Shown here: positions 1,178-39,274 of the stretch, one piece after another
How positions within the stretch are numbered: position 1 is the first letter of the stretch
Layout of the letters: each line of letters starts with the position of its first letter
Virus record (IMG/VR): IMGVR_UViG_3300037511_000247
Location: 1 to 39,274 of that record
DNA from: a virus
Direction: 5' to 3' (one strand)
Length of the DNA stretch: 39,274 nt
Position numbers and translations under genes: made by a program
The notes under the pieces: model-generated
What the model was told of the DNA's origin: nothing
Database searches by the model: none
What the model saw: the letters and a program-made list of their open reading frames with translations, nothing else

Positions 1178-1217
1178 CCCCCTATTTCCATTACTGGATT
1201 TTTTTTCCATTTTCTGC

Positions 1218-1246
1218 TTGACCGGCTCCGTGAGTTGGATTTTACT
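1218..1246 (+). promoter_or_regulatory. Sigma70-like promoter candidate (PL analogue) for the plus-strand operon 1273-5608
   Basis: TTGACC (1218-1223), a 17-nt spacer, then TTTACT (1241-1246). It lies in an AT-rich 95-bp gap after the cI stop. Confidence 0.45.
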
Positions 1247-1265
1247 TCCAACACACACCGTTGGA
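1243..1265. promoter_or_regulatory. Operator-like site overlapping the -10 of the PL-like promoter
   Basis: TACTTCCAAC (1243-1252) matches the TAATTCCAAC operator repeat at 358-367 in 9 of 10 positions. It is the left arm of a perfect dyad TCCAAC-N7-GTTGGA (1247-1265). Weaker TTTCCATT copies lie at 1185-1192 and 1204-1211. Confidence 0.5.
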
Positions 1266-1272
1266 GCCGCCA

Positions 1273-1536
1273 ATGTCCCTCGACCGCCGCAACACCGCCA
1301 CCCGCCCCGCTCACACCGTCCATGAGGACATTCGGGCGCAGCGCTTAGCGAGCATGATCGCCAGCAGCCGCCGGCTGGTTGCGATGGGCGAGGACGAGCT
1401 CCGCCGTATCGACGCCGGCGAATACAGCGCTACCCCCAAGCACCGTGAGCACGTCGCCCGTGAACTGGAAATCCATCGTGGGTGGCTGGCCGATCTGACG
1501 GCGGAAGCCTCTCCCCTCCGCGCTGCGGCGGAGTGA
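1273..1536 (+). CDS. Hypothetical protein (early-left operon gene 1)
   Basis: 87 aa from ATG 1273, preceded by TGGAG. The ORF track starts it at TTG 1261. Its stop overlaps the next start as TGATG. Confidence 0.55.
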   Translation: MSLDRRNTATRPAHTVHEDIRAQRLASMIASSRRLVAMGEDELRRIDAGEYSATPKHREHVARELEIHRGWLADLTAEASPLRAAAE

Positions 1537-1949
1537 TGACGATGACCGTCATCCCCTTCCCCATCGGCCCCCGGCTCATTGAAGCCGACAGCGTATTGGC
1601 TCGGCCTCCGGCCAGCCCCCGCTCGCTGAAGGTCATCGCGCTCGACATCCTCATTCATCAGGCGATGGCACGGCCTGACCCGATCAAAGCTCTCTGTGAC
1701 CTGGATTTGGCCGTTTTGCGTAGGGCGCTCCGTCTCGCTCGCGGCCGCCTGAAATACATGCGCGGCTCTTTCGGCAATGCCTGCGGTTGGAGACGCGTCC
1801 TCCGCGGCCATGCACCTTCGCCGGCGGTCCTTCGGGAGTTCGCGGAACACCAGGTCAAGACCATCAAGTCGTCCATCGCTGATTACCGCCTGCGCATCGT
1901 CCGCCTGCAGGCCGCCATTGTCCTGAAAACAAACCCACCAGCCGCATAG
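1536..1949 (+). CDS. Hypothetical protein (early-left operon gene 2)
   Basis: 137 aa starting MTMTVIPFP. ATG 1536 shares one base with the upstream TGA. No motif recognised. Confidence 0.55.
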   Translation: MTMTVIPFPIGPRLIEADSVLARPPASPRSLKVIALDILIHQAMARPDPIKALCDLDLAVLRRALRLARGRLKYMRGSFGNACGWRRVLRGHAPSPAVLREFAEHQVKTIKSSIADYRLRIVRLQAAIVLKTNPPAA

Positions 1950-1958
1950 GAGAGCACC

Positions 1959-2258
1959 ATGACGCTCGAAGCCCTAATGGCCAACCTCGCCGCCGTCCGT
2001 AGTCAAATCGCTAAACGGGGATGGACCGACGCCCAGGTAAAGCGTTTGGCAGACAAAGAAGACGCTGCCGTTTTCGCTATCGCTCGCCACCCAGCCGCTT
2101 CGGTGGACGAAATGTGCGCCAAGCTCCTCGTCCTGTTCGATGTCGAGGCGCGGATCGGCCTGTTTCAGGGCTGCGCCGACCTGAAGGCTCTCAAAGCCAG
2201 CCTGCTCACCGACATGCGCCACCTCCGCGACAAGCGGTCTCCCGCCAAAGCCGCTTAG
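1959..2258 (+). CDS. Hypothetical protein, paralogue of 3427-3762
   Basis: 99 aa. The segment AVFAIARHPAASVDEMCAKLLVLF aligns with AVCALARYQPKDTDELLQKLWTGF of the 3427-3762 product. Confidence 0.6.
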   Translation: MTLEALMANLAAVRSQIAKRGWTDAQVKRLADKEDAAVFAIARHPAASVDEMCAKLLVLFDVEARIGLFQGCADLKALKASLLTDMRHLRDKRSPAKAA

Positions 2259-2266
2259 AGCCCACC

Positions 2267-2665
2267 ATGAACGCCGTTCTTCCCTTTGTCGCCGCCGGAA
2301 GCCGCTTCAACGCCGCTGATCTGCAAATGTCATTGGTGCGAACCAATAGCATGGCACCGGCGGTCCCCATGGACAGCCTTGTGTTCTTGGGGCCGGCGCT
2401 GACCCCCCGGGACCGTGTTCTTGAAACGCTCTACAGCATCGCGTCCCCATCCGGCACGCACGACGGCAACCTGCGACGCGTCAGCGTGATCGGGCCGGGT
2501 CGTTACAGCCTGCGCGCGGATGGCGCGCCGTTCCGCGACGAAATCACCCGAGAAGAACTGACCAACCCGCGTGGCGACGTTCGCCGCGTCCTCGGCGCAT
2601 GCATCCCCTACGACTACGAATTTGGGATGTGGATGCGCGAACACTTTGACCGCTCAGCCCGATAG
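2267..2665 (+). CDS. Hypothetical protein with possible degenerate S24/LexA-like fold
   Basis: 132 aa from ATG 2267. VRTNSMAPAVPMDSLVFL resembles the S24 v.GdSMeP..dGd.v.v strand. LRRV sits where S24 enzymes have vKRl. RGDVRRVLG resembles the C-terminal G.V..v strand. Confidence 0.5.
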   Translation: MNAVLPFVAAGSRFNAADLQMSLVRTNSMAPAVPMDSLVFLGPALTPRDRVLETLYSIASPSGTHDGNLRRVSVIGPGRYSLRADGAPFRDEITREELTNPRGDVRRVLGACIPYDYEFGMWMREHFDRSAR

Positions 2666-2674
2666 GAGACATCC

Positions 2675-3427
2675 ATGAGCACAATCCGACAAATCCGTAA
2701 GCGCCTGAAGACAGAGACGCTGGAATGGACTGAGGTCCACGTCTCGGCTGATGAACTCGACGTTCAGGACCTGTGCGACTGGGCGGAATATCTCGGTCAC
2801 TCCATCAGCCCGAGCAGCGGATACGGCTATGGCGTCTCCATGGCGGAGGATCGACCCAAGGACTACGAACGCCAGCACATGCCGTTCTTCGCCGTCCTGA
2901 ACGCCGACAACCCGGGGCGCCGGAAGTCGTGGAAGATCACCGACTTTTTCAACGAGATGTTCCCGGAAATCCGCAAGGCCGCGGACATGGAAGCGGCGGC
3001 TTTGCGCAAGATCCACAAGCACGCGCTGTTTCTCCCGATCAGCCGCACCGGCACCTACTGCAACCGTCGCGATGCTCTGGATAATCCCGAGAAGCACGGC
3101 ATTCCGCTCTACGCAGCGACTGCTAACGATATCCTCCGGGACCCGCGAGGCGACCAGTGGAAACAGGAACGTCTTGCCGAACTTAAGCGCGCACAGGAAC
3201 AGCACGCGGTCCTGATGGCGGACGCCGGCAACGCCAAACGCCAAGCAAGCCTGCGTCGGGCGGCGAAAGCCTACGCGCAAGCGCTGGAGATGCTGGCCTT
3301 TAGCGGTGATCTGCACCGCGCTGGTTATGAGCGGGTGAGGGTGTGGCGCGCCGCGATGCGCAAGCGCCTGGGCCTCAAGGACCGGAAGCCGAAGGCCATC
3401 GGCGCCCCGCGCAAAAAGGCAGCCTGA
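2675..3427 (+). CDS. Hypothetical protein (250 aa), basic C-terminus
   Basis: Largest ORFan of the operon. Its stop overlaps the next ATG as TGATG. No motif recognised. Confidence 0.65.
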   Translation: MSTIRQIRKRLKTETLEWTEVHVSADELDVQDLCDWAEYLGHSISPSSGYGYGVSMAEDRPKDYERQHMPFFAVLNADNPGRRKSWKITDFFNEMFPEIRKAADMEAAALRKIHKHALFLPISRTGTYCNRRDALDNPEKHGIPLYAATANDILRDPRGDQWKQERLAELKRAQEQHAVLMADAGNAKRQASLRRAAKAYAQALEMLAFSGDLHRAGYERVRVWRAAMRKRLGLKDRKPKAIGAPRKKAA

Positions 3428-3762
3428 TGTCCGCACAAATGACGCTCCCCGTAATTCTCGCGAAGATGGCCGGGGCCCTGAGCAGGGTTCAGACTTCAAC
3501 CGAGCAACGCCGGATTATGGGCGCCATGCGAGCATACAACGACGCTGTGTGCGCGCTCGCTAGATACCAACCCAAGGATACCGACGAACTGCTGCAAAAA
3601 CTGTGGACCGGGTTCGCCATCCTCGATGCCGACTACCGGGTGGACCACGAGGAAGACTGTCCGCTGCACGCGCCGTCCGATCTGGCGGTCAGAAAACTGC
3701 GCAAGTCCATGGAGATGGACGTGCGGGCGGCGGTGGCGCTCAAGCTCAAAGCCGCTGCCTAG
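3427..3762 (+). CDS. Hypothetical protein, paralogue of 1959-2258
   Basis: 111 aa from ATG 3427, which shares one base with the upstream TGA. Shares the A-V-x-A-[IL]-A-R-[HY]-x5-D-E-[ML]-x2-K-L segment with the 1959-2258 product. Confidence 0.6.
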   Translation: MSAQMTLPVILAKMAGALSRVQTSTEQRRIMGAMRAYNDAVCALARYQPKDTDELLQKLWTGFAILDADYRVDHEEDCPLHAPSDLAVRKLRKSMEMDVRAAVALKLKAAA

Positions 3763-3771
3763 TCTCGCTCC

Positions 3772-3930
3772 ATGCCCCGCAAGTCCGCATCAGCGCTGGC
3801 GAAACAGCCCCAGGAGCCGCCCATGCCGGTGGAACTCCTGGAGCTGGCCCGCTTGCTTGCGGACATCAGCGTCACGCGCGAACATGGGCAGGCCGCCCCG
3901 CAGGAAGTCCCTCCGCCGCCGCGGCGCTGA
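3772..3930 (+). CDS. Possible 52-aa micro-ORF just upstream of int (positional RDF/excisionase candidate)
   Basis: MPRKSASALAKQPQEPPMPVELLELARLLADISVTREHGQAAPQEVPPPPRR. Third codon positions are strongly G/C-rich. An internal ATG at 3823 has an AGGAG 6 nt upstream. It is below the ORF-track length cutoff. Confidence 0.3.
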   Translation: MPRKSASALAKQPQEPPMPVELLELARLLADISVTREHGQAAPQEVPPPPRR

Positions 3931-3940
3931 GGACACCCAC

Positions 3941-5608
3941 ATGCGCGTATGTCTCTACGCCCGCTATTCCTCCGATCGGCAGAACCCAAGGTCTGTTGAC
4001 GATCAGGTCCGGGAGCTTCGCGACTTCTGCGACCGTCGCGGCTGGATCGTGGTGGACACTTTCTCTGATCCCGAGGTTTCCGGCGCAACCGTCATCCTGC
4101 GCCCCGGCGTCCAGGCGATGATGGCCGCCGCCGCTGAAGGCCGCTTTGACGTTGTCCTTGTCGAATCCCTGGACCGGTTCTCACGCGACCTGGGCGACAC
4201 GGCGAACCTGCGAAAGAGCCTGAAATTCCATCAGGTGGCCTTACACACGCTGAGCGGCGAACAGTCTCTTTTGCATATCGCCTTCGATGGCGCCCGCGCC
4301 GAACAGTTCCTGGAAGACCTCAAGGTGAAGGTGCGCCGCGGTCAGCGCGGCAACATCTCCCGAGGCCTCGCCGCAGGCGGGGTGAGTTACGGCTATGAAG
4401 TGGTCCGCGAGTTCGATGACAAGGGGCGGGTCCAGGGCGGACGGCGGCGCATCAACGAGGCGGAGGCCGCCATAGTGCGGGAGGTCTTAACCAGCTACGC
4501 CGCGGGCGTCTCACCCCTGGCAATCGCCGAGGATCTGAACCGGCGTGGGATTCCGGCGCCGCGAGGCGGCCGGTGGCGCGCCTCCACGATCAGCGGCAAC
4601 AAGGCCCGCCGGACCGGCATCCTGCAAAACGAACTCTATACCGGCCAACTCACCTATGGCCGCACCTGTAAGGCCAAGAACCCGGCCACGGGCAAGGAGC
4701 TGATCCGCAACCAGCCCGAAGCCGAATGGAAGCGACAATACGTCCCCGAGCTGCGGATTATTGATGACGCCACCTGGGCGGAAGTCCGGGCCATGATGAC
4801 CCGCACAGGGGCCCAGGCGCGCGCCGGCAAGCCGGTGAAGCGCGCGGCGCACCTGCTGTCCGGTTTGATCACCTGCACCTGTGGCGCGCCCTACGTCGCC
4901 CGGGACGCCAAGCGCCTATCCTGCCGGGGGTTCATGCACGACGGGACCTGCACGAACGCCCGAAGGGTCCGGCGCGACTGGATCGAAACTCGGGTTCTGG
5001 ACGAGATTGCCGCCGCCCTGGCACGCCCAGAAGCCGTGGCCGCGCATGCCCACAGGCTGCACCAGGCCAAGGCCGCCCAGGATGGCCAGCGCCGCGGTCA
5101 GCACCGGGCGGCGGTCAAGGAACTGGGTGAGGTCCGGACCAAGATCGGCCGCCTTGTTAACTCCATCGCGGATGGCGACAGCGCCCCGGCCTCTATCATG
5201 ACAATGATCACGAGCCTGGAGGCCCGGGAGAAGGTGCTCGCCGCCACCGTGGACAGCCTCAAGGACGAGGACGTGGTTCGGCTGGAGCCCAACGCCCATA
5301 GGCTCTACGCGGCGCGGCTAGCGAACCTGCGGGAGGCCTTGGAAAGCGGGACGCCGGCCCAACGGGCCAAGGCGCGCAGCCTGCTCCGCGGTCTCATCGA
5401 GCGGGTGGAAATCATCCCCGTGACCGGCGCCGATGGCCGGGAGACGTTCGAATGGAAACTGGTTGGAAAGCTCGCCGAATTCCTCAAGCTCGCCGCGAAC
5501 GGCGGAGCCGAGAAGACCCCAAATGTAGCGTGGGGGTCTGTGTTGGTGCGGGTAGAGGAAGTTGGTCAGATACCCCCACCCCTGCTGGAGCTACGATTTA
5601 CCGGATAG
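3941..5608 (+). CDS. int: Large serine recombinase (phage integrase)
   Basis: 555 aa from ATG 3941, with GAGGA 7 nt upstream. The N-terminal resolvase domain reads MRVCLYARYSSDRQ...VLVESLDRFSRD. A recombinase domain follows, then the Cys cluster CTCGAPYVARDAKRLSCRGFMHDGTC and a C-terminal coiled coil. The 660-aa ORF-track version is an upstream over-extension. Confidence 0.92.
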   Translation: MRVCLYARYSSDRQNPRSVDDQVRELRDFCDRRGWIVVDTFSDPEVSGATVILRPGVQAMMAAAAEGRFDVVLVESLDRFSRDLGDTANLRKSLKFHQVALHTLSGEQSLLHIAFDGARAEQFLEDLKVKVRRGQRGNISRGLAAGGVSYGYEVVREFDDKGRVQGGRRRINEAEAAIVREVLTSYAAGVSPLAIAEDLNRRGIPAPRGGRWRASTISGNKARRTGILQNELYTGQLTYGRTCKAKNPATGKELIRNQPEAEWKRQYVPELRIIDDATWAEVRAMMTRTGAQARAGKPVKRAAHLLSGLITCTCGAPYVARDAKRLSCRGFMHDGTCTNARRVRRDWIETRVLDEIAAALARPEAVAAHAHRLHQAKAAQDGQRRGQHRAAVKELGEVRTKIGRLVNSIADGDSAPASIMTMITSLEAREKVLAATVDSLKDEDVVRLEPNAHRLYAARLANLREALESGTPAQRAKARSLLRGLIERVEIIPVTGADGRETFEWKLVGKLAEFLKLAANGGAEKTPNVAWGSVLVRVEEVGQIPPPLLELRFTG

Positions 5609-5646: not shown

Positions 5647-5955
5647 CTATTCCTCGCCGTCTGGGAATAGCGCGTGGAGGCTGTACAACAGCCCGCCGCA
5701 TGCACCCACCAGCAGGAACAGGCTGGTGTCCCCGATGACATCCAACACGTCCTTATCGACCAACCCGACCATGATAAGGATCGAGAACGCGAAGGTCGTC
5801 GCGTCGAAGATGATCTGGTTGACCCGCTTGCCCGGCCGGCGAAGCGACTTATGGACCCAAAACGCCCGAATATAGACCAGCGCAAGGTAAAGGATGCTGA
5901 GGACCAGCACCCACGCCGAGAGTTGTTCCTTGGTTTTTGGAAGATCCGGAAGCAC
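5647..5955 (-). CDS. Small integral membrane protein (3 predicted TM helices)
   Basis: 102 aa. Hydrophobic spans are WVLVLSILYLALVYIRAFWV, IIFDATTFAFSILIMVGLV and LFLLVGACGGLLYSLHALF. It is convergent with int and its start shares one base with the stop of the upstream gene. Confidence 0.65.
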   Translation of the reverse strand: MLPDLPKTKEQLSAWVLVLSILYLALVYIRAFWVHKSLRRPGKRVNQIIFDATTFAFSILIMVGLVDKDVLDVIGDTSLFLLVGACGGLLYSLHALFPDGEE

Positions 5956-6155
5956 TAACCCCGCAGGGCAGCGAGCGCTCCGATAACGCCCCCAATACCC
6001 GCAGCCGCGCCTTCACCGACAATCGTCGGAGGCACACCGAGGAAATGGGGTACGGTCACGCCGACGAGGGCCAGTGCAAGAACCGCACAGCCCACGCCGC
6101 CTTTAACCGCCATTACGAAGCGGGCGGTCTTAACCACCTTACGCATCGCGGACAT
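5955..6155 (-). CDS. Small glycine-zipper membrane protein
   Basis: 66 aa from ATG 6155, with GGAG 7 nt upstream. The ORF track extends it to 6179. Sequence contains GGVGCAVLALALVGV and GAAAGIGGVIGALAAL. Confidence 0.55.
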   Translation of the reverse strand: MSAMRKVVKTARFVMAVKGGVGCAVLALALVGVTVPHFLGVPPTIVGEGAAAGIGGVIGALAALRG

Positions 6156-6465
6156 AGAATTCTCCATATCCAAAATCATCGTTCCCTCATGCTCCCGGGG
6201 TACTTAAGTATCTGTTAATTTAGGCAATGGCAGGGCGAACCTACCGTCGTAGTGGGCGCATGAAGCAGGACGTTTAAACGCCCGTCAAGGCGTAGAGGTA
6301 CACCCGTAGGCGTTGAACCGTGCAATTTTTGCCCGAAAGCTGGCTTCGTTGCACTGCCGCAACACTTATGGGCGCTTAACAGGGATTACAATGCGAGGAC
6401 CTGAGTTGCAGGTATGCAATCGGCGCACGACTTCGTAAGCTTTCCCCCTACGGCTTTCCCGAGCC

Positions 6466-6482
6466 GCGCAAACCGTTTGCGC
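6466..6482. promoter_or_regulatory. Perfect palindrome GCGCAAAC-C-GTTTGCGC, 14 nt upstream of the 6497 ATG
   Basis: Two 8-bp arms that are exact reverse complements, separated by one central base, read directly from the sequence. Confidence 0.4.
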
Positions 6483-6496
6483 CACCCGGACAGACC

Positions 6497-6685
6497 ATGC
6501 CCAGACCAGCCCAATGGCTTCGCCTCACCCATGAGCGCCTAGGCGATATACCGGTCTACCGGTTCGTGCCGGTCGATTACTTCAGCAAGACGGAACTGCG
6601 GCGCTTGCCGCAGACGGAGGCGCTCAAAGCCGCCCTGAAGGCGCTGCGCGCCCACCGGAAAGCACAAACCCCGCCCTCGGTGTGA
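6497..6685 (+). CDS. Hypothetical 62-aa protein, stand-alone plus-strand unit
   Basis: MPRPAQWLRLTHERLGDIPVYRF.... A palindrome lies upstream and an intrinsic terminator overlaps its stop codon. Confidence 0.45.
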   Translation: MPRPAQWLRLTHERLGDIPVYRFVPVDYFSKTELRRLPQTEALKAALKALRAHRKAQTPPSV

Positions 6686-6700
6686 GGACGGGGCTTTGTT
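6669..6700. terminator. Bidirectional intrinsic terminator
   Basis: CCCCGCCCTC (6669-6678) pairs with GAGGACGGGG (6684-6693) at 9 of 10 positions around loop GGTGT. CTTTGTT follows on the plus strand and TTTGTGCTTT on the minus strand. Confidence 0.7.
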
Positions 6701-6753
6701 GGTGGCCCCGGGCCGGCGTCTCGAGCACCCGGGGCAGGCGAGATTATAGCAAA

Positions 6754-6776
6754 GGGGGTCGTTCCGGACGACCCCC
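6754..6776 (-). terminator. Intrinsic terminator closing the minus-strand late/lysis operon
   Basis: Perfect 9-bp stem GGGGGTCGT/ACGACCCCC with a 5-nt loop. On the minus strand it is followed by TTTGCTATAAT. Confidence 0.6.
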
Positions 6777-6915
6777 TGCGCGGATGCCTGCAGGACTGAT
6801 TCCCTCTGCAAGCATAAATCAGGCTAAGTCATTGATTTAAAAAGCGCGCGGACTGATTTTGCGCGTGGCGGCGGCGACATGGGCCCTTTTGAAGGGGGGG
6901 CCCGCAAGAAATGCC

Positions 6916-7218
6916 CTATTTATCGGCATTTCCTGCCATCGACGGCTTCACGATCTGCGCCACGGCCTCCACCTTCGACCGACAGTCCGCGCCGGCCGCA
7001 GCCAGGTCGATGATGAACTGGCCGACGTCGCGCTGGGTGCCGGTATCCGGCGGCGCCGGCTGAGGGGCGCACGTCAGCAGGTCCCCGGGGATCGGCTGGC
7101 GCACTAGTTCCTTGCGCACCACGACCTGGGGAACAGGCGGCTCCGGCTTACTGGCGCAGGCCGCCAAGGGCAGCGCGAAGCACAGGAGCAACAGGGCCGT
7201 CATCGGTAGCCGGGGCAT
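6916..7218 (-). CDS. o-spanin (Rz1-like outer-membrane lipoprotein)
   Basis: 100 aa. Signal plus lipobox reads LLLLCFALPLAAC-ASKPEPP, followed by a Pro-rich mature part with further Cys. The start lies inside the 3' end of the i-spanin gene, giving an overlapped spanin arrangement. Confidence 0.7.
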   Translation of the reverse strand: MPRLPMTALLLLCFALPLAACASKPEPPVPQVVVRKELVRQPIPGDLLTCAPQPAPPDTGTQRDVGQFIIDLAAAGADCRSKVEAVAQIVKPSMAGNADK

Positions 7219-7540
7219 CGTGAATTCTCCGTTTCAGGGCGTCATAGTCGGATTGCAGGGCGGCCTGCGCCTGGCGCGCGGCGTCAGCCTTGGCCTCCGC
7301 TGCCGTGGTCATGTCCTGGTACAGCTGCAGGGTGGCGGCGTTGGCCTGGGCGGTTTCGTTCGCCGCGGTGAAGTTGGCCTTCCACTGATCGCGTGCGGTC
7401 TCGGTGGCGCTCAGGCGCGCATTGGCGGCGGACAGGCGTTCGTGTTCGACATAGACAGCGCCCGAAAGCACCAGCACCAGGACCGCGGCGCCGACGGCCG
7501 GCCAGATGTTGCCCATCAGCCAGGACAGGATGGTTTTCAT
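7148..7540 (-). CDS. i-spanin (Rz-like)
   Basis: 130 aa from ATG 7540. It has an N-terminal TM (MKTILSWLMGNIWPAVGAAVLVLVLSGAV) followed by an Ala/Gln-rich coiled coil. The 239-aa ORF-track version is over-extended. Confidence 0.75.
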   Translation of the reverse strand: MKTILSWLMGNIWPAVGAAVLVLVLSGAVYVEHERLSAANARLSATETARDQWKANFTAANETAQANAATLQLYQDMTTAAEAKADAARQAQAALQSDYDALKRRIHDAPATDDGPVAPVLRAALGGLRQ

Positions 7541-10601: not shown

Positions 10602-10982
10602 ATGATGTCACAGCGGTATATCGGTCTCGCGGCGTTGACTGTCTCAATGGCAATCGGAATTGGTCACTCAATCGCCGCTGTGGACGAGTACGGCAGTTTG
10701 ACGGCGGAAATGCTCATGTCGTTTTGCGGCGCCGACGCCGATAGCGGTGTCCACAAATCTTGTGAAATGTATCTGAAGGGCGCGGCCGATGCCTTGAACA
10801 ACAGCAGCGCCAGCGCTCCCCATGCCTGCATGAGGTCCGCGACGCTAACTGAAGTGCGCTTGGCGTTCGTTCGCCTGGCGGCTCAACGGCTGGAAAATCA
10901 TCCCCAAGATATTGAAGCACCGGCCGCAAAACTTGTCGCCGCTGTCCTCCCGTCCGCGTTTGCATGCCCCTCTAAGAAATAG
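10602..10982 (+). CDS. Secreted Rap1a/Tai4-like immunity-family protein (moron)
   Basis: 126 aa. The signal peptide is MMSQRYIGLAALTVSMAIGIGHSIAA. Four Cys sit in the pattern FC-x11-CEMYLKGAADAL...HAC...LENHPQDIEAPAAKLVAAVLPSAFACP. It is on the opposite strand to all neighbours and is more AT-rich. Confidence 0.5.
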   Translation: MMSQRYIGLAALTVSMAIGIGHSIAAVDEYGSLTAEMLMSFCGADADSGVHKSCEMYLKGAADALNNSSASAPHACMRSATLTEVRLAFVRLAAQRLENHPQDIEAPAAKLVAAVLPSAFACPSKK

Positions 10983-39147: not shown

Positions 39148-39274
39148 CACCAAAGCCCGGCCGCGGCGTAAACCCAGGATCGCGGCGCGCGGACGACGCC
39201 ACACGGCTCAGATCTACTGGTTCGAAATGGAACGCCTGAAGCGCTTGGGGTTGCGGTGAAGTCATCAAGCGGCC
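39148..39274. repeat. Right copy of the 127-bp terminal direct repeat
   Basis: Identical to bases 1-127. It includes the last 10 nt of the cro-like gene. Confidence 0.9.

Follow-up and report, generated by a model that had tools for sequence, protein, structure and literature searches.

In phages lambda and P22, cro and the repressor gene cI diverge from three OR sites, and cI is followed by an operator-covered promoter, small early genes and int. Between the immunity region and int sit the Red and Erf recombination modules, and lambda, P22 and Mu-like phages keep cargo genes with such a position and such early timing. Early-left operons rich in genes without known function are common in temperate phages. 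Here, we describe a block of seven small genes (o1 to o7, positions 1273 to 3930) of the virus record IMGVR_UViG_3300037511_000247; all 39,274 nucleotides of this record were analysed and are called the window. The block lies between a CI-like repressor gene and the gene of a large serine integrase, and we consider it probable that it is the early-left operon of a temperate phage, organised like lambda from PL to int.

Repressor, operators and coupled genes

The immunity region is of lambdoid type. Its CI-like repressor (395-1177, + strand, 260 amino acids; the public gene call starts at 401) combines a helix-turn-helix (HTH) with a Peptidase_S24 domain (Pfam HTH_3, E 5e-9, and Peptidase_S24, E 1e-9; PHROG 4, E 8e-24). 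A small HTH gene diverges from it (118-315, - strand, 65 amino acids, ending in -REAA); this cro-like gene matches the transcriptional regulators of PHROG 35 and 409 (E 5e-6 and 3e-4) and, weakly, P22_Cro/YdaS, and a promoter scan places a sigma-70-like promoter for it at 351-323 on the - strand. An OR-like operator triplet (329-386) comprises TGGATGTAAATTCCA at 329-343, AGGAAAATAATTCCA, which has one mismatch, at 351-365, and TGGACCGTAATTCCA at 372-386, with start-to-start spacings of 22 and 21 bp. The same operator recurs beyond cI as an OL-like pair (1195-1250), TGGATTTTTTTTCCA at 1195-1209 and TGGATTTTACTTCCA at 1236-1250, at a second, sub-consensus promoter, 30-80 bp beyond the end of cI, that would drive genes away from cI. 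This PL-like promoter was read from the sequence at 1218-1246 on the + strand (TTGACC at 1218-1223, 17 nt, TTTACT at 1241-1246), and the operator at 1236-1250 overlaps its -10 hexamer. TGGA-N7-TCCA occurs exactly four times in 39 kb (329, 372, 1195 and 1236), always flanking cI, where 0.43 copies are expected, and a count of four was reached in none of 100 shuffles; the copy with one mismatch at 351 is a fifth.

The two-site layout recurs in five relatives, independent contigs of uncultivated temperate phages (L003, L005-7, L008-9, L010 and L011) that carry homologues of the block's products (see below). A survey of the cro-cI intergenic region and of the DNA directly upstream of the first operon gene found that all five repeat a palindrome of their own at both places: ATTGC-N4-GCAAT in L003 (5943 and 5963 between cro and cI, 6820 and 6840 at the operon promoter), AATCACGATRCGTGATT in L005 (5840 and 7372, respectively), GTTG-N9-CAAC in L008 (2892; 4715, 4752 and 4770) as well as in L010 (6539; 7673 and 7706), and AATTGCAnnTGCAATT in L011 (6441; 7311 and 7333). 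Among the six related phages there are at least five different operator palindromes, that is, distinct immunity specificities, in an otherwise conserved layout. Differing specificities together with a constant two-site layout are the expectation for an OR/OL system. Promoter motifs are present at the same place in L005 (TTGACC-17-TTTTCT), in L010 (TTGACT-18-AACTAT) and, as a TTTAC motif, in the further contig L004. The operator statistics and the recurrence of the two-site layout with different palindromes in five relatives support the predicted control of the operon promoter by the repressor.

Downstream of the PL-like promoter, seven open reading frames (ORFs) follow one another on the + strand: o1 (1273-1536, 87 amino acids, ending in -AAAE, family F1), o2 (1536-1949, 137 amino acids, isoelectric point 11.4, ending in -PPAA, family F2), o3 (1959-2258, 99 amino acids, ending in -AKAA, family F36), o4 (2267-2665, 132 amino acids, family F4), o5 (2675-3427, 250 amino acids, ending in -RKKAA, family F5), o6 (3427-3762, 111 amino acids, ending in -KAAA, a second F36 copy) and o7 (3772-3930, 52 amino acids). 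Directly after o7 comes the last gene of the unit, int (3941-5608, + strand), which encodes the large serine integrase of 555 amino acids. As read from the sequence, the junctions are TGATG overlaps at o1/o2 (1534-1538) and o5/o6 (3425-3429), gaps of 9 nt at o2/o3, o4/o5 and o6/o7, a gap of 8 nt at o3/o4 and one of 10 nt at o7/int, and AGGAG or GAGGA adjoins several of the stop codons in the block. No terminator-like site was found on the + strand from o1 through int (1273-5608).

All named frames have a G+C content of 0.72-0.81 at third codon positions (GC3) and of 0.43-0.52 at second positions (GC2), like cI and int, a coding pattern that is not seen in the long antisense or out-of-frame ORFs of the block. 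Two long antisense ORFs (1311-1850 and 2654-3499, - strand) were rejected as real genes on account of their GC3/GC2 pattern. Public gene calls, used as an independent check on ORF boundaries, match the ORF set with two differences only, a start of o2 at 1542 (135 amino acids) and a shorter o7 (35 amino acids, from 3823). The latter is the only doubtful gene of the block, because it is short, proline-rich and without a homologue anywhere; its in-frame GC3 is 0.81, and its coding status is uncertain. By inspection, no membrane segments were predicted in any product of the block.

Weak sites made of a hairpin and a T-run lie after the cI stop codon at 1168-1184 and 1222-1238 (+ strand), in a number at or below chance. 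The lysogenic cI transcript may end at either of them. The second, a 7-bp stem with ATTTTACTT after it, lies in the PL-like promoter, between its -35 and -10 hexamers, and might be a terminator of that transcript or a by-product of the operator palindrome.

Much of this agrees with an earlier, sequence-only reading of the same DNA. The ORFs that it had listed (87, 137, 99, 132, 250 and 111 amino acids, with a possible further one of 52) are present where it had placed them and at these lengths, and the TGATG overlaps or gaps of at most 10 nt that it had described are borne out. Its positional equation of the block with the lambda PL operon holds, with three OR sites, cI, two OL sites and a promoter, the coupled genes and int, all on one strand with cI. 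The link that it drew between repressor and operators is backed by the four exact copies and by the layout of the relatives, and the operator that it saw on the promoter is indeed there, though in two copies and not in one.

A conserved core in a small phage clade

When the seven products were concatenated and searched with full HMMER against 1.84 billion cluster representatives, 12 matches to proteins other than themselves had E <= 0.001: three to o1 (P0006, with 80% identity, P0012 and P0016), one to o2 (P0013), five to o4 (P0009, P0010, P0014, P0015 and P0017), two to o5 (P0007 and P0008), and P0018, a protein of 4,488 amino acids that is probably a chance match. For o3, o6 and o7, there were no non-self matches in this search, and a word-indexed protein search with o5 found only o5 itself. 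The genes had been called ORFans in the sequence-only reading; the term is too strong, since o1, o2, o3/o6, o4 and o5 have rare homologues.

The matched proteins are at home in the five phage contigs named above, which have a common map. One strand carries a replication module (Toprim/DUF7146 together with AAA_25 or a DnaB-like fusion) and cro, the other strand cI, a run of coupled small genes and an integrase gene, in this order, and the homologues always stand in the context of a divergent cro-cI pair followed by operon and int.

Clustering of all operon products of the six clade phages by BLASTP assigns o2 and o4 to families that are present in all six (F2 and F4), o5 to one present in five of them (F5), and o3 and o6 to one present in four, namely the window phage and three of the five relatives (F36; L003, L005 and L008). 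Two further families have no member in the window. FA (136-140 amino acids), in whose slot the window has o1, occurs in four relatives, and hhalign connects it weakly with the first gene of L003; FX (233-347 amino acids) occurs in three relatives. The identity of o2, o4 and o5 to their L003 orthologues is 31-37%, close to the 40% between the repressors of both phages, so that the operon core is about as constrained as the repressor. We conclude that o2, o4 and o5 belong to the core gene set of this small clade of phages.

The two F36 genes of the window, o3 and o6, are paralogues (BLASTP, 28% identity over ~100 amino acids, E 6e-5). They flank o4 and o5, and relatives have a single F36 copy, in some cases with a fused C-terminal extension of ~120 amino acids (L003, 7616-8293; L005, 8237-8944). 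Profile comparison among the operon families, done as a test of serial duplication, yielded only the o3-o6 pair already apparent from BLASTP and the weak link of FA to L003_105 (hhalign probability 59%, E 9e-5); relatedness of o1 to FA was undetectable by this comparison. As judged from gene neighbourhoods, o1 is an exchangeable first gene, or cassette, because its 80% identical homologue in L004 (P0006) precedes unrelated genes. The small genes between core and int vary among the relatives. Around its stable core, the operon has mosaic ends, and four relatives have a tyrosine integrase where the window has a serine integrase.

Possible roles of the operon products

For o1 to o7, no match below E 0.01 was obtained from Pfam, PHROGs, NCBIfam or PADLOC, and PADLOC had none at E <= 1 either. 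Scans of 34 more operon proteins, taken from the relatives, recognised none but the integrases. Sequence and profile searches of the PDB were negative for all families (profiles of F4, F5, F2 and F36 against all PDB sequences). The earlier statement that no product has a recognised function holds in these five databases for all seven genes, and they contain none of the confident matches to ordinary phage functions that the sequence-only reading had named as evidence against itself.

If the block is an early-left operon, the repressor would shut the PL-like promoter in the lysogen. Infection, or SOS-induced cleavage of the S24 repressor, would lead to a single transcript from about 1253 through int, along which ribosomes would pass from gene to gene by termination and reinitiation (coupled translation). 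The conserved core (o2, o3/o6, o4 and o5) would then do an early job that is common to the clade, and not serve as strain-specific cargo. As for the other genes, o1 would be exchangeable cargo, and o7, if it is a real gene, would be the only positional candidate for a partner of the integrase. Our best guess for the job of the core is control of the switch between lysis and lysogeny. This guess leads because of o4, which may be a repressor-type C-terminal domain that lacks the HTH, is catalytically dead and could bind the repressor or RecA. The operon products would decay fast via Ala-Ala tails, and their action would therefore be a pulse.

The likeness of o4 to LexA/CI C-terminal domains was noticed by eye, as a motif pattern in the F4 family. 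HTH-less S24 domains exist, for example UmuD and P1 HumD. AlphaFold models of o4 had a predicted local distance difference test (pLDDT) score of 37 for the single sequence and, with a six-member alignment, a pLDDT of 60.8 and a predicted template modelling score of 0.54, the latter model being mostly beta-strand. Foldseek found no significant match for it in the PDB, where a signal-peptidase-complex chain came out best (E 0.096) and SpsB and phage 186 CI ranked lower. The top matches in BFVD, which span E 0.018-0.2, were a signal peptidase I (0.018), a "Repressor" (0.036), COG2932 (0.046) and two CI repressors; an S26 protein and a LexA followed at lower rank. When the F4 members were run singly against PHROGs, there was one match to PHROG 6201 ("CI-like repressor", E 1.2e-4) and one to PHROG 4, the family of the window's own cI (E 0.014). 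A tblastn search of phages with five o4 homologues returned junction artefacts only (E 4).

An hhalign comparison of F4 with an alignment of S24 domains (lambda CI, LexA, UmuD and five clade repressors) was weak (P 0.015, probability 3%); it places xM-P....SL.FL on SM......GD.L.V and RRL on KRL. In this register, and by the family alignment, the nucleophile position reads S/Y/Y/D/D/D across the six F4 members, and the general-base lysine is an arginine in all six. As the Ser/Lys catalytic pair is not kept in the family, o4 is not a peptidase. Compared with Peptidase S24 (the C-terminal domain of LexA, CI and UmuD, in clan SF with the S26 signal peptidases), o4 has a similar size (~125 amino acids), has a predicted fold that is mostly beta and agrees in motif register, and its top structural neighbours and one PHROG match are CI-like repressors or signal peptidases. 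It differs in having an extra C-terminal helix, in not keeping the catalytic Ser/Lys, and in lacking a significant Pfam, PDB or profile-profile match. On balance, the chances of an S24/LexA-like fold appear somewhat better than even, and a domain of this kind may be catalytically dead; S24 membership is not claimed.

The idea of fast decay comes from the C-termini. In the public gene calls of all six clade phages, Ala-Ala is the C-terminus of 22 of 47 products of the early-left operons and of 14 of the 110 remaining products (Fisher p 8.6e-6, odds ratio 6). In the window, o2, o3, o5 and o6 have this end; by family, it is found in all members of F5 (5/5), F36 (5/5) and FX (3/3), with varying residues before it. 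Of the 14 products outside the early-left operons that end in this way, several are encoded by early-right genes, among them the cro-like and the primase-like gene of the window, and few by late genes. The alanine codons lie outside the downstream Shine-Dalgarno sequences, as read from the sequence. Terminal Ala-Ala is a critical, although not sufficient, element of ssrA-like ClpXP degrons (PMC10862746), and the tails probably make the early proteins short-lived substrates of ClpXP type. With the ssrA-like C-terminal degrons (…LAA-COOH, or the Ala-Ala tail of Caulobacter CtrA), o2, o3, o5 and o6 share the Ala-Ala; the upstream residues are mostly basic or proline instead of leucine or aromatic. 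If the tails are real degrons, they would provide a simple marker, readable from sequence, of "pulse" proteins in phage genomes.

Taken together, these elements could form a previously undescribed early regulatory module that belongs to a new clade of temperate phages, and in which o4, made from PL as a dead, HTH-less C-terminal domain of repressor or LexA type, binds the repressor or RecA* and latches lytic growth, with Ala-Ala ClpXP degrons timing the proteins. In this specific form, the proposal is a long shot. Binding of o4 to the repressor, if it takes place, would make o4 an anti-repressor of a new kind, one derived from the repressor itself.

Several observations weigh against the early-left operon as we read it, or against parts of this reading. 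The -10 hexamer of the PL-like promoter lacks the A that is usual at position 2, and the promoter was not listed by the consensus scanner for this reason. The window proteins get no function from any of the five databases. For o4, the comparison of F4 with the clade's own repressors only was negative, with hhalign probabilities of 2-3% over this comparison and the broader one above, and none of the six F4 members matches Pfam, S24 included, even at E <= 5; the S24-like reading is built from concordant but individually non-significant matches, with a Foldseek template modelling score of ~0.3 on a model of pLDDT 61. As for the tails, the residues before the Ala-Ala (PPAA, AKAA, KKAA) are mostly basic or proline and not the preferred hydrophobic ones, and Ala-Ala by itself is insufficient in E. 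coli screens (PMC10862746). Finally, conservation in six phages is compatible with an anti-defence or host-takeover role.

The last point touches on the alternative that survives best, which we nevertheless consider unlikely. It holds that the block is a hotspot of exchangeable, early-fired cargo, with anti-defence, host-takeover or exclusion genes that differ between phages, much as the sequence-only reading had it. Position and early timing fit this view, as does the fact that no product matches a housekeeping phage family. The edges of the operon fit as well: o1 is replaced by an unrelated family in the relatives and its L004 homologue has other neighbours, o7 is unique, and the small genes ahead of int vary. 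The core does not behave in this way. In five to six of the six phages, o2, o4 and o5 have been kept, diverged like the repressors (~30-40% identity), even though operators and integrase class have been swapped, and o3 and o6 are paralogues, which argues against freely variable cargo such as strain-specific anti-defence genes or morons. Superinfection exclusion, which had also been suggested, is unlikely: the repressor would keep the promoter of these genes shut in the lysogen, and genes repressed there cannot give exclusion encoded by the prophage. That PADLOC matches none of the products is a weaker point, as its library consists of defence systems and not of anti-defence proteins.

We give little credence to a second alternative, in which the core is a novel module for homologous recombination or replication support, analogous to lambda exo-bet-gam or P22 erf-abc, with o5 as the annealing protein. 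The map position between immunity region and int would suit such a module, the core is conserved across the clade, o5 is Bet-like in size, o2 is very basic, and there is no recognised recombinase among the window gene calls with Pfam matches. Yet no Redβ/RecT, Erf, Sak, exonuclease or SSB model in Pfam or PHROGs matches F2, F36, F4, F5, FA or FX, although the homologues were scanned individually, and the families of recombination modules (Redβ/RecT, Erf and Sak; exonuclease; Gam/Abc) remain without a match when the window proteins and ~57 homologues and neighbours are considered. Moreover, no invariant acidic motif of nuclease type is evident in the alignments, and the profile searches of the PDB were negative.

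The integrase bears on a third alternative. It is a large serine recombinase by its matches (Pfam Resolvase, E 6e-24, Recombinase, E 1e-19, and Zn_ribbon_recom, E 1e-7; PHROG 95, E 2e-91), with the nearest phage integrases in Microcystis and Rhizobium phages (33-37% identity). Four relatives (L005, L008, L010 and L011) have tyrosine integrases, and the presence of the core families beside these shows that the core genes are not integrase-specific directionality or excision factors. The sequence-only reading had counted recombination directionality among the roles of such a region and had proposed to look for conserved neighbourhoods beside serine integrases; the core is indeed kept, but beside tyrosine integrases in four of the relatives, so that a directionality role is unlikely for the core genes. 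Least probable of all is a reading in which o7 (most plausibly; o6 possibly) is the recombination directionality factor (RDF) of the serine integrase and the rest of the operon is incidental. In its favour, o7 is unique to the clade's only serine-integrase phage and ends 10 nt ahead of int, its slot in the tyrosine-integrase relatives holds a conserved gene of 94-100 amino acids that overlaps or abuts int, and, according to a preprint (bioRxiv 10.1101/2024.08.21.608926), RDFs of large serine integrases lack a shared fold and escape homology searches. Against it, an RDF made together with int from one promoter would appear at infection, when integration and not excision is needed; o7 is short (35-52 amino acids), proline-rich and without a homologue, so that its status as a gene is in doubt; the core families stand beside tyrosine integrases in relatives; and o1 to o7 match no described RDF or Xis/excisionase family in Pfam or PHROGs.

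Surrounding genome and comparison with lambda

The window has the same 127 bp at both ends (an exact direct repeat, 1-127 = 39148-39274), which identifies it as a circular assembly with a genome of 39,147 bp. The phage is temperate and uncultivated, and its genome is complete. Among the publicly called genes, those with Pfam marks of a small terminase, a Toprim/DUF7146 primase-like protein, an AAA_25 helicase-like protein, an SLT lysin and a spanin-like lipoprotein point to a temperate tailed phage, and the large terminase is nearest to that of Myxococcus phage Mx8 (38% identity). The G+C content of the window is 62%, and it contains no tRNA genes. The phage has also been assembled in two further public data sets: a contig from Logan SRR12692973 is 100% identical over the 13.4 kb retrieved, and one from JGI 3300045391 has a matching gene order. 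No match came from nucleotide or tblastn searches of 50,697 phage records and 72,556 plasmids, and close relatives are absent from INPHARED, PLSDB, IMG/VR and GTDB genomes (the latter two scanned with o5, int, cI and TerL). The sole match of int in the GTDB genomes, with 22% identity, is in a metagenome-assembled genome of Sericytochromatia.

On the cro side, the early-right operon runs on across the window ends. Just downstream of int, and converging on it, lie genes for two small, strongly hydrophobic proteins of 102 and 74 amino acids (5647-5955 and 5955-6179, - strand), for which several membrane spans were predicted by inspection; these could be moron, exclusion or holin-like genes. Non-coding DNA separates the pair from the lysis genes. 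Two non-coding stretches near int (6180-6500 and 6690-6900) are candidate regions for the phage attachment site attP; between them is a + strand ORF of 62 amino acids (6497-6685), followed by a GC-rich hairpin and a T-run. A Rap1a-like gene (10602-10982, + strand, Pfam PF18602) runs against the direction of the late genes around it and may be a gene for lysogenic conversion.

A member of the same Rap1a-like family is located directly after cI in L008 (3763-4161), a position expressed in the lysogen. L008 and L005 have extra genes between cI and the operon promoter: in L008 the Rap1a-like gene and, on the other strand, a staphylococcal-nuclease-like (SNase-like) gene (4216-4692, - strand), and in L005 an SNase-like gene on the other strand (6851-7351, - strand) and an unannotated gene of 85 amino acids. 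The SNase-like gene is missing from the window.

The comparison with the PL operon of lambda and P22 shows both likeness and difference. Apart from gene order and orientation, the systems share a repressor with HTH and S24 domains and operator copies that are confined to two promoters, and here, too, int is at the distal end of the unit, 10 nt after o7 and with no terminator-like site between them. The cargo of the relatives that would be expressed in the lysogen, the Rap1a-like and SNase-like genes, lies between cI and the promoter, in the slot that rexAB has in lambda. On the other hand, an N-type antiterminator, cIII, kil, gam/bet/exo or xis homologue is not detectable in the block, no nut site is apparent, although no search was aimed at it, there are two OL sites where lambda has three, the integrase is a large serine recombinase and not a tyrosine recombinase, the genes are far more tightly coupled, and every product is from a family that is absent in Pfam and PHROGs. 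The regulatory layout is textbook lambdoid and brings no new principle; the novelty is in the protein content. F1, F2, F36, F4 and F5 each have fewer than 10 members among ~15 billion predicted proteins, a clade of uncultivated phages has conserved three of these five new families, one family is a possible mimic of a repressor domain, and it is a habit of the whole clade to end its early proteins in Ala-Ala.

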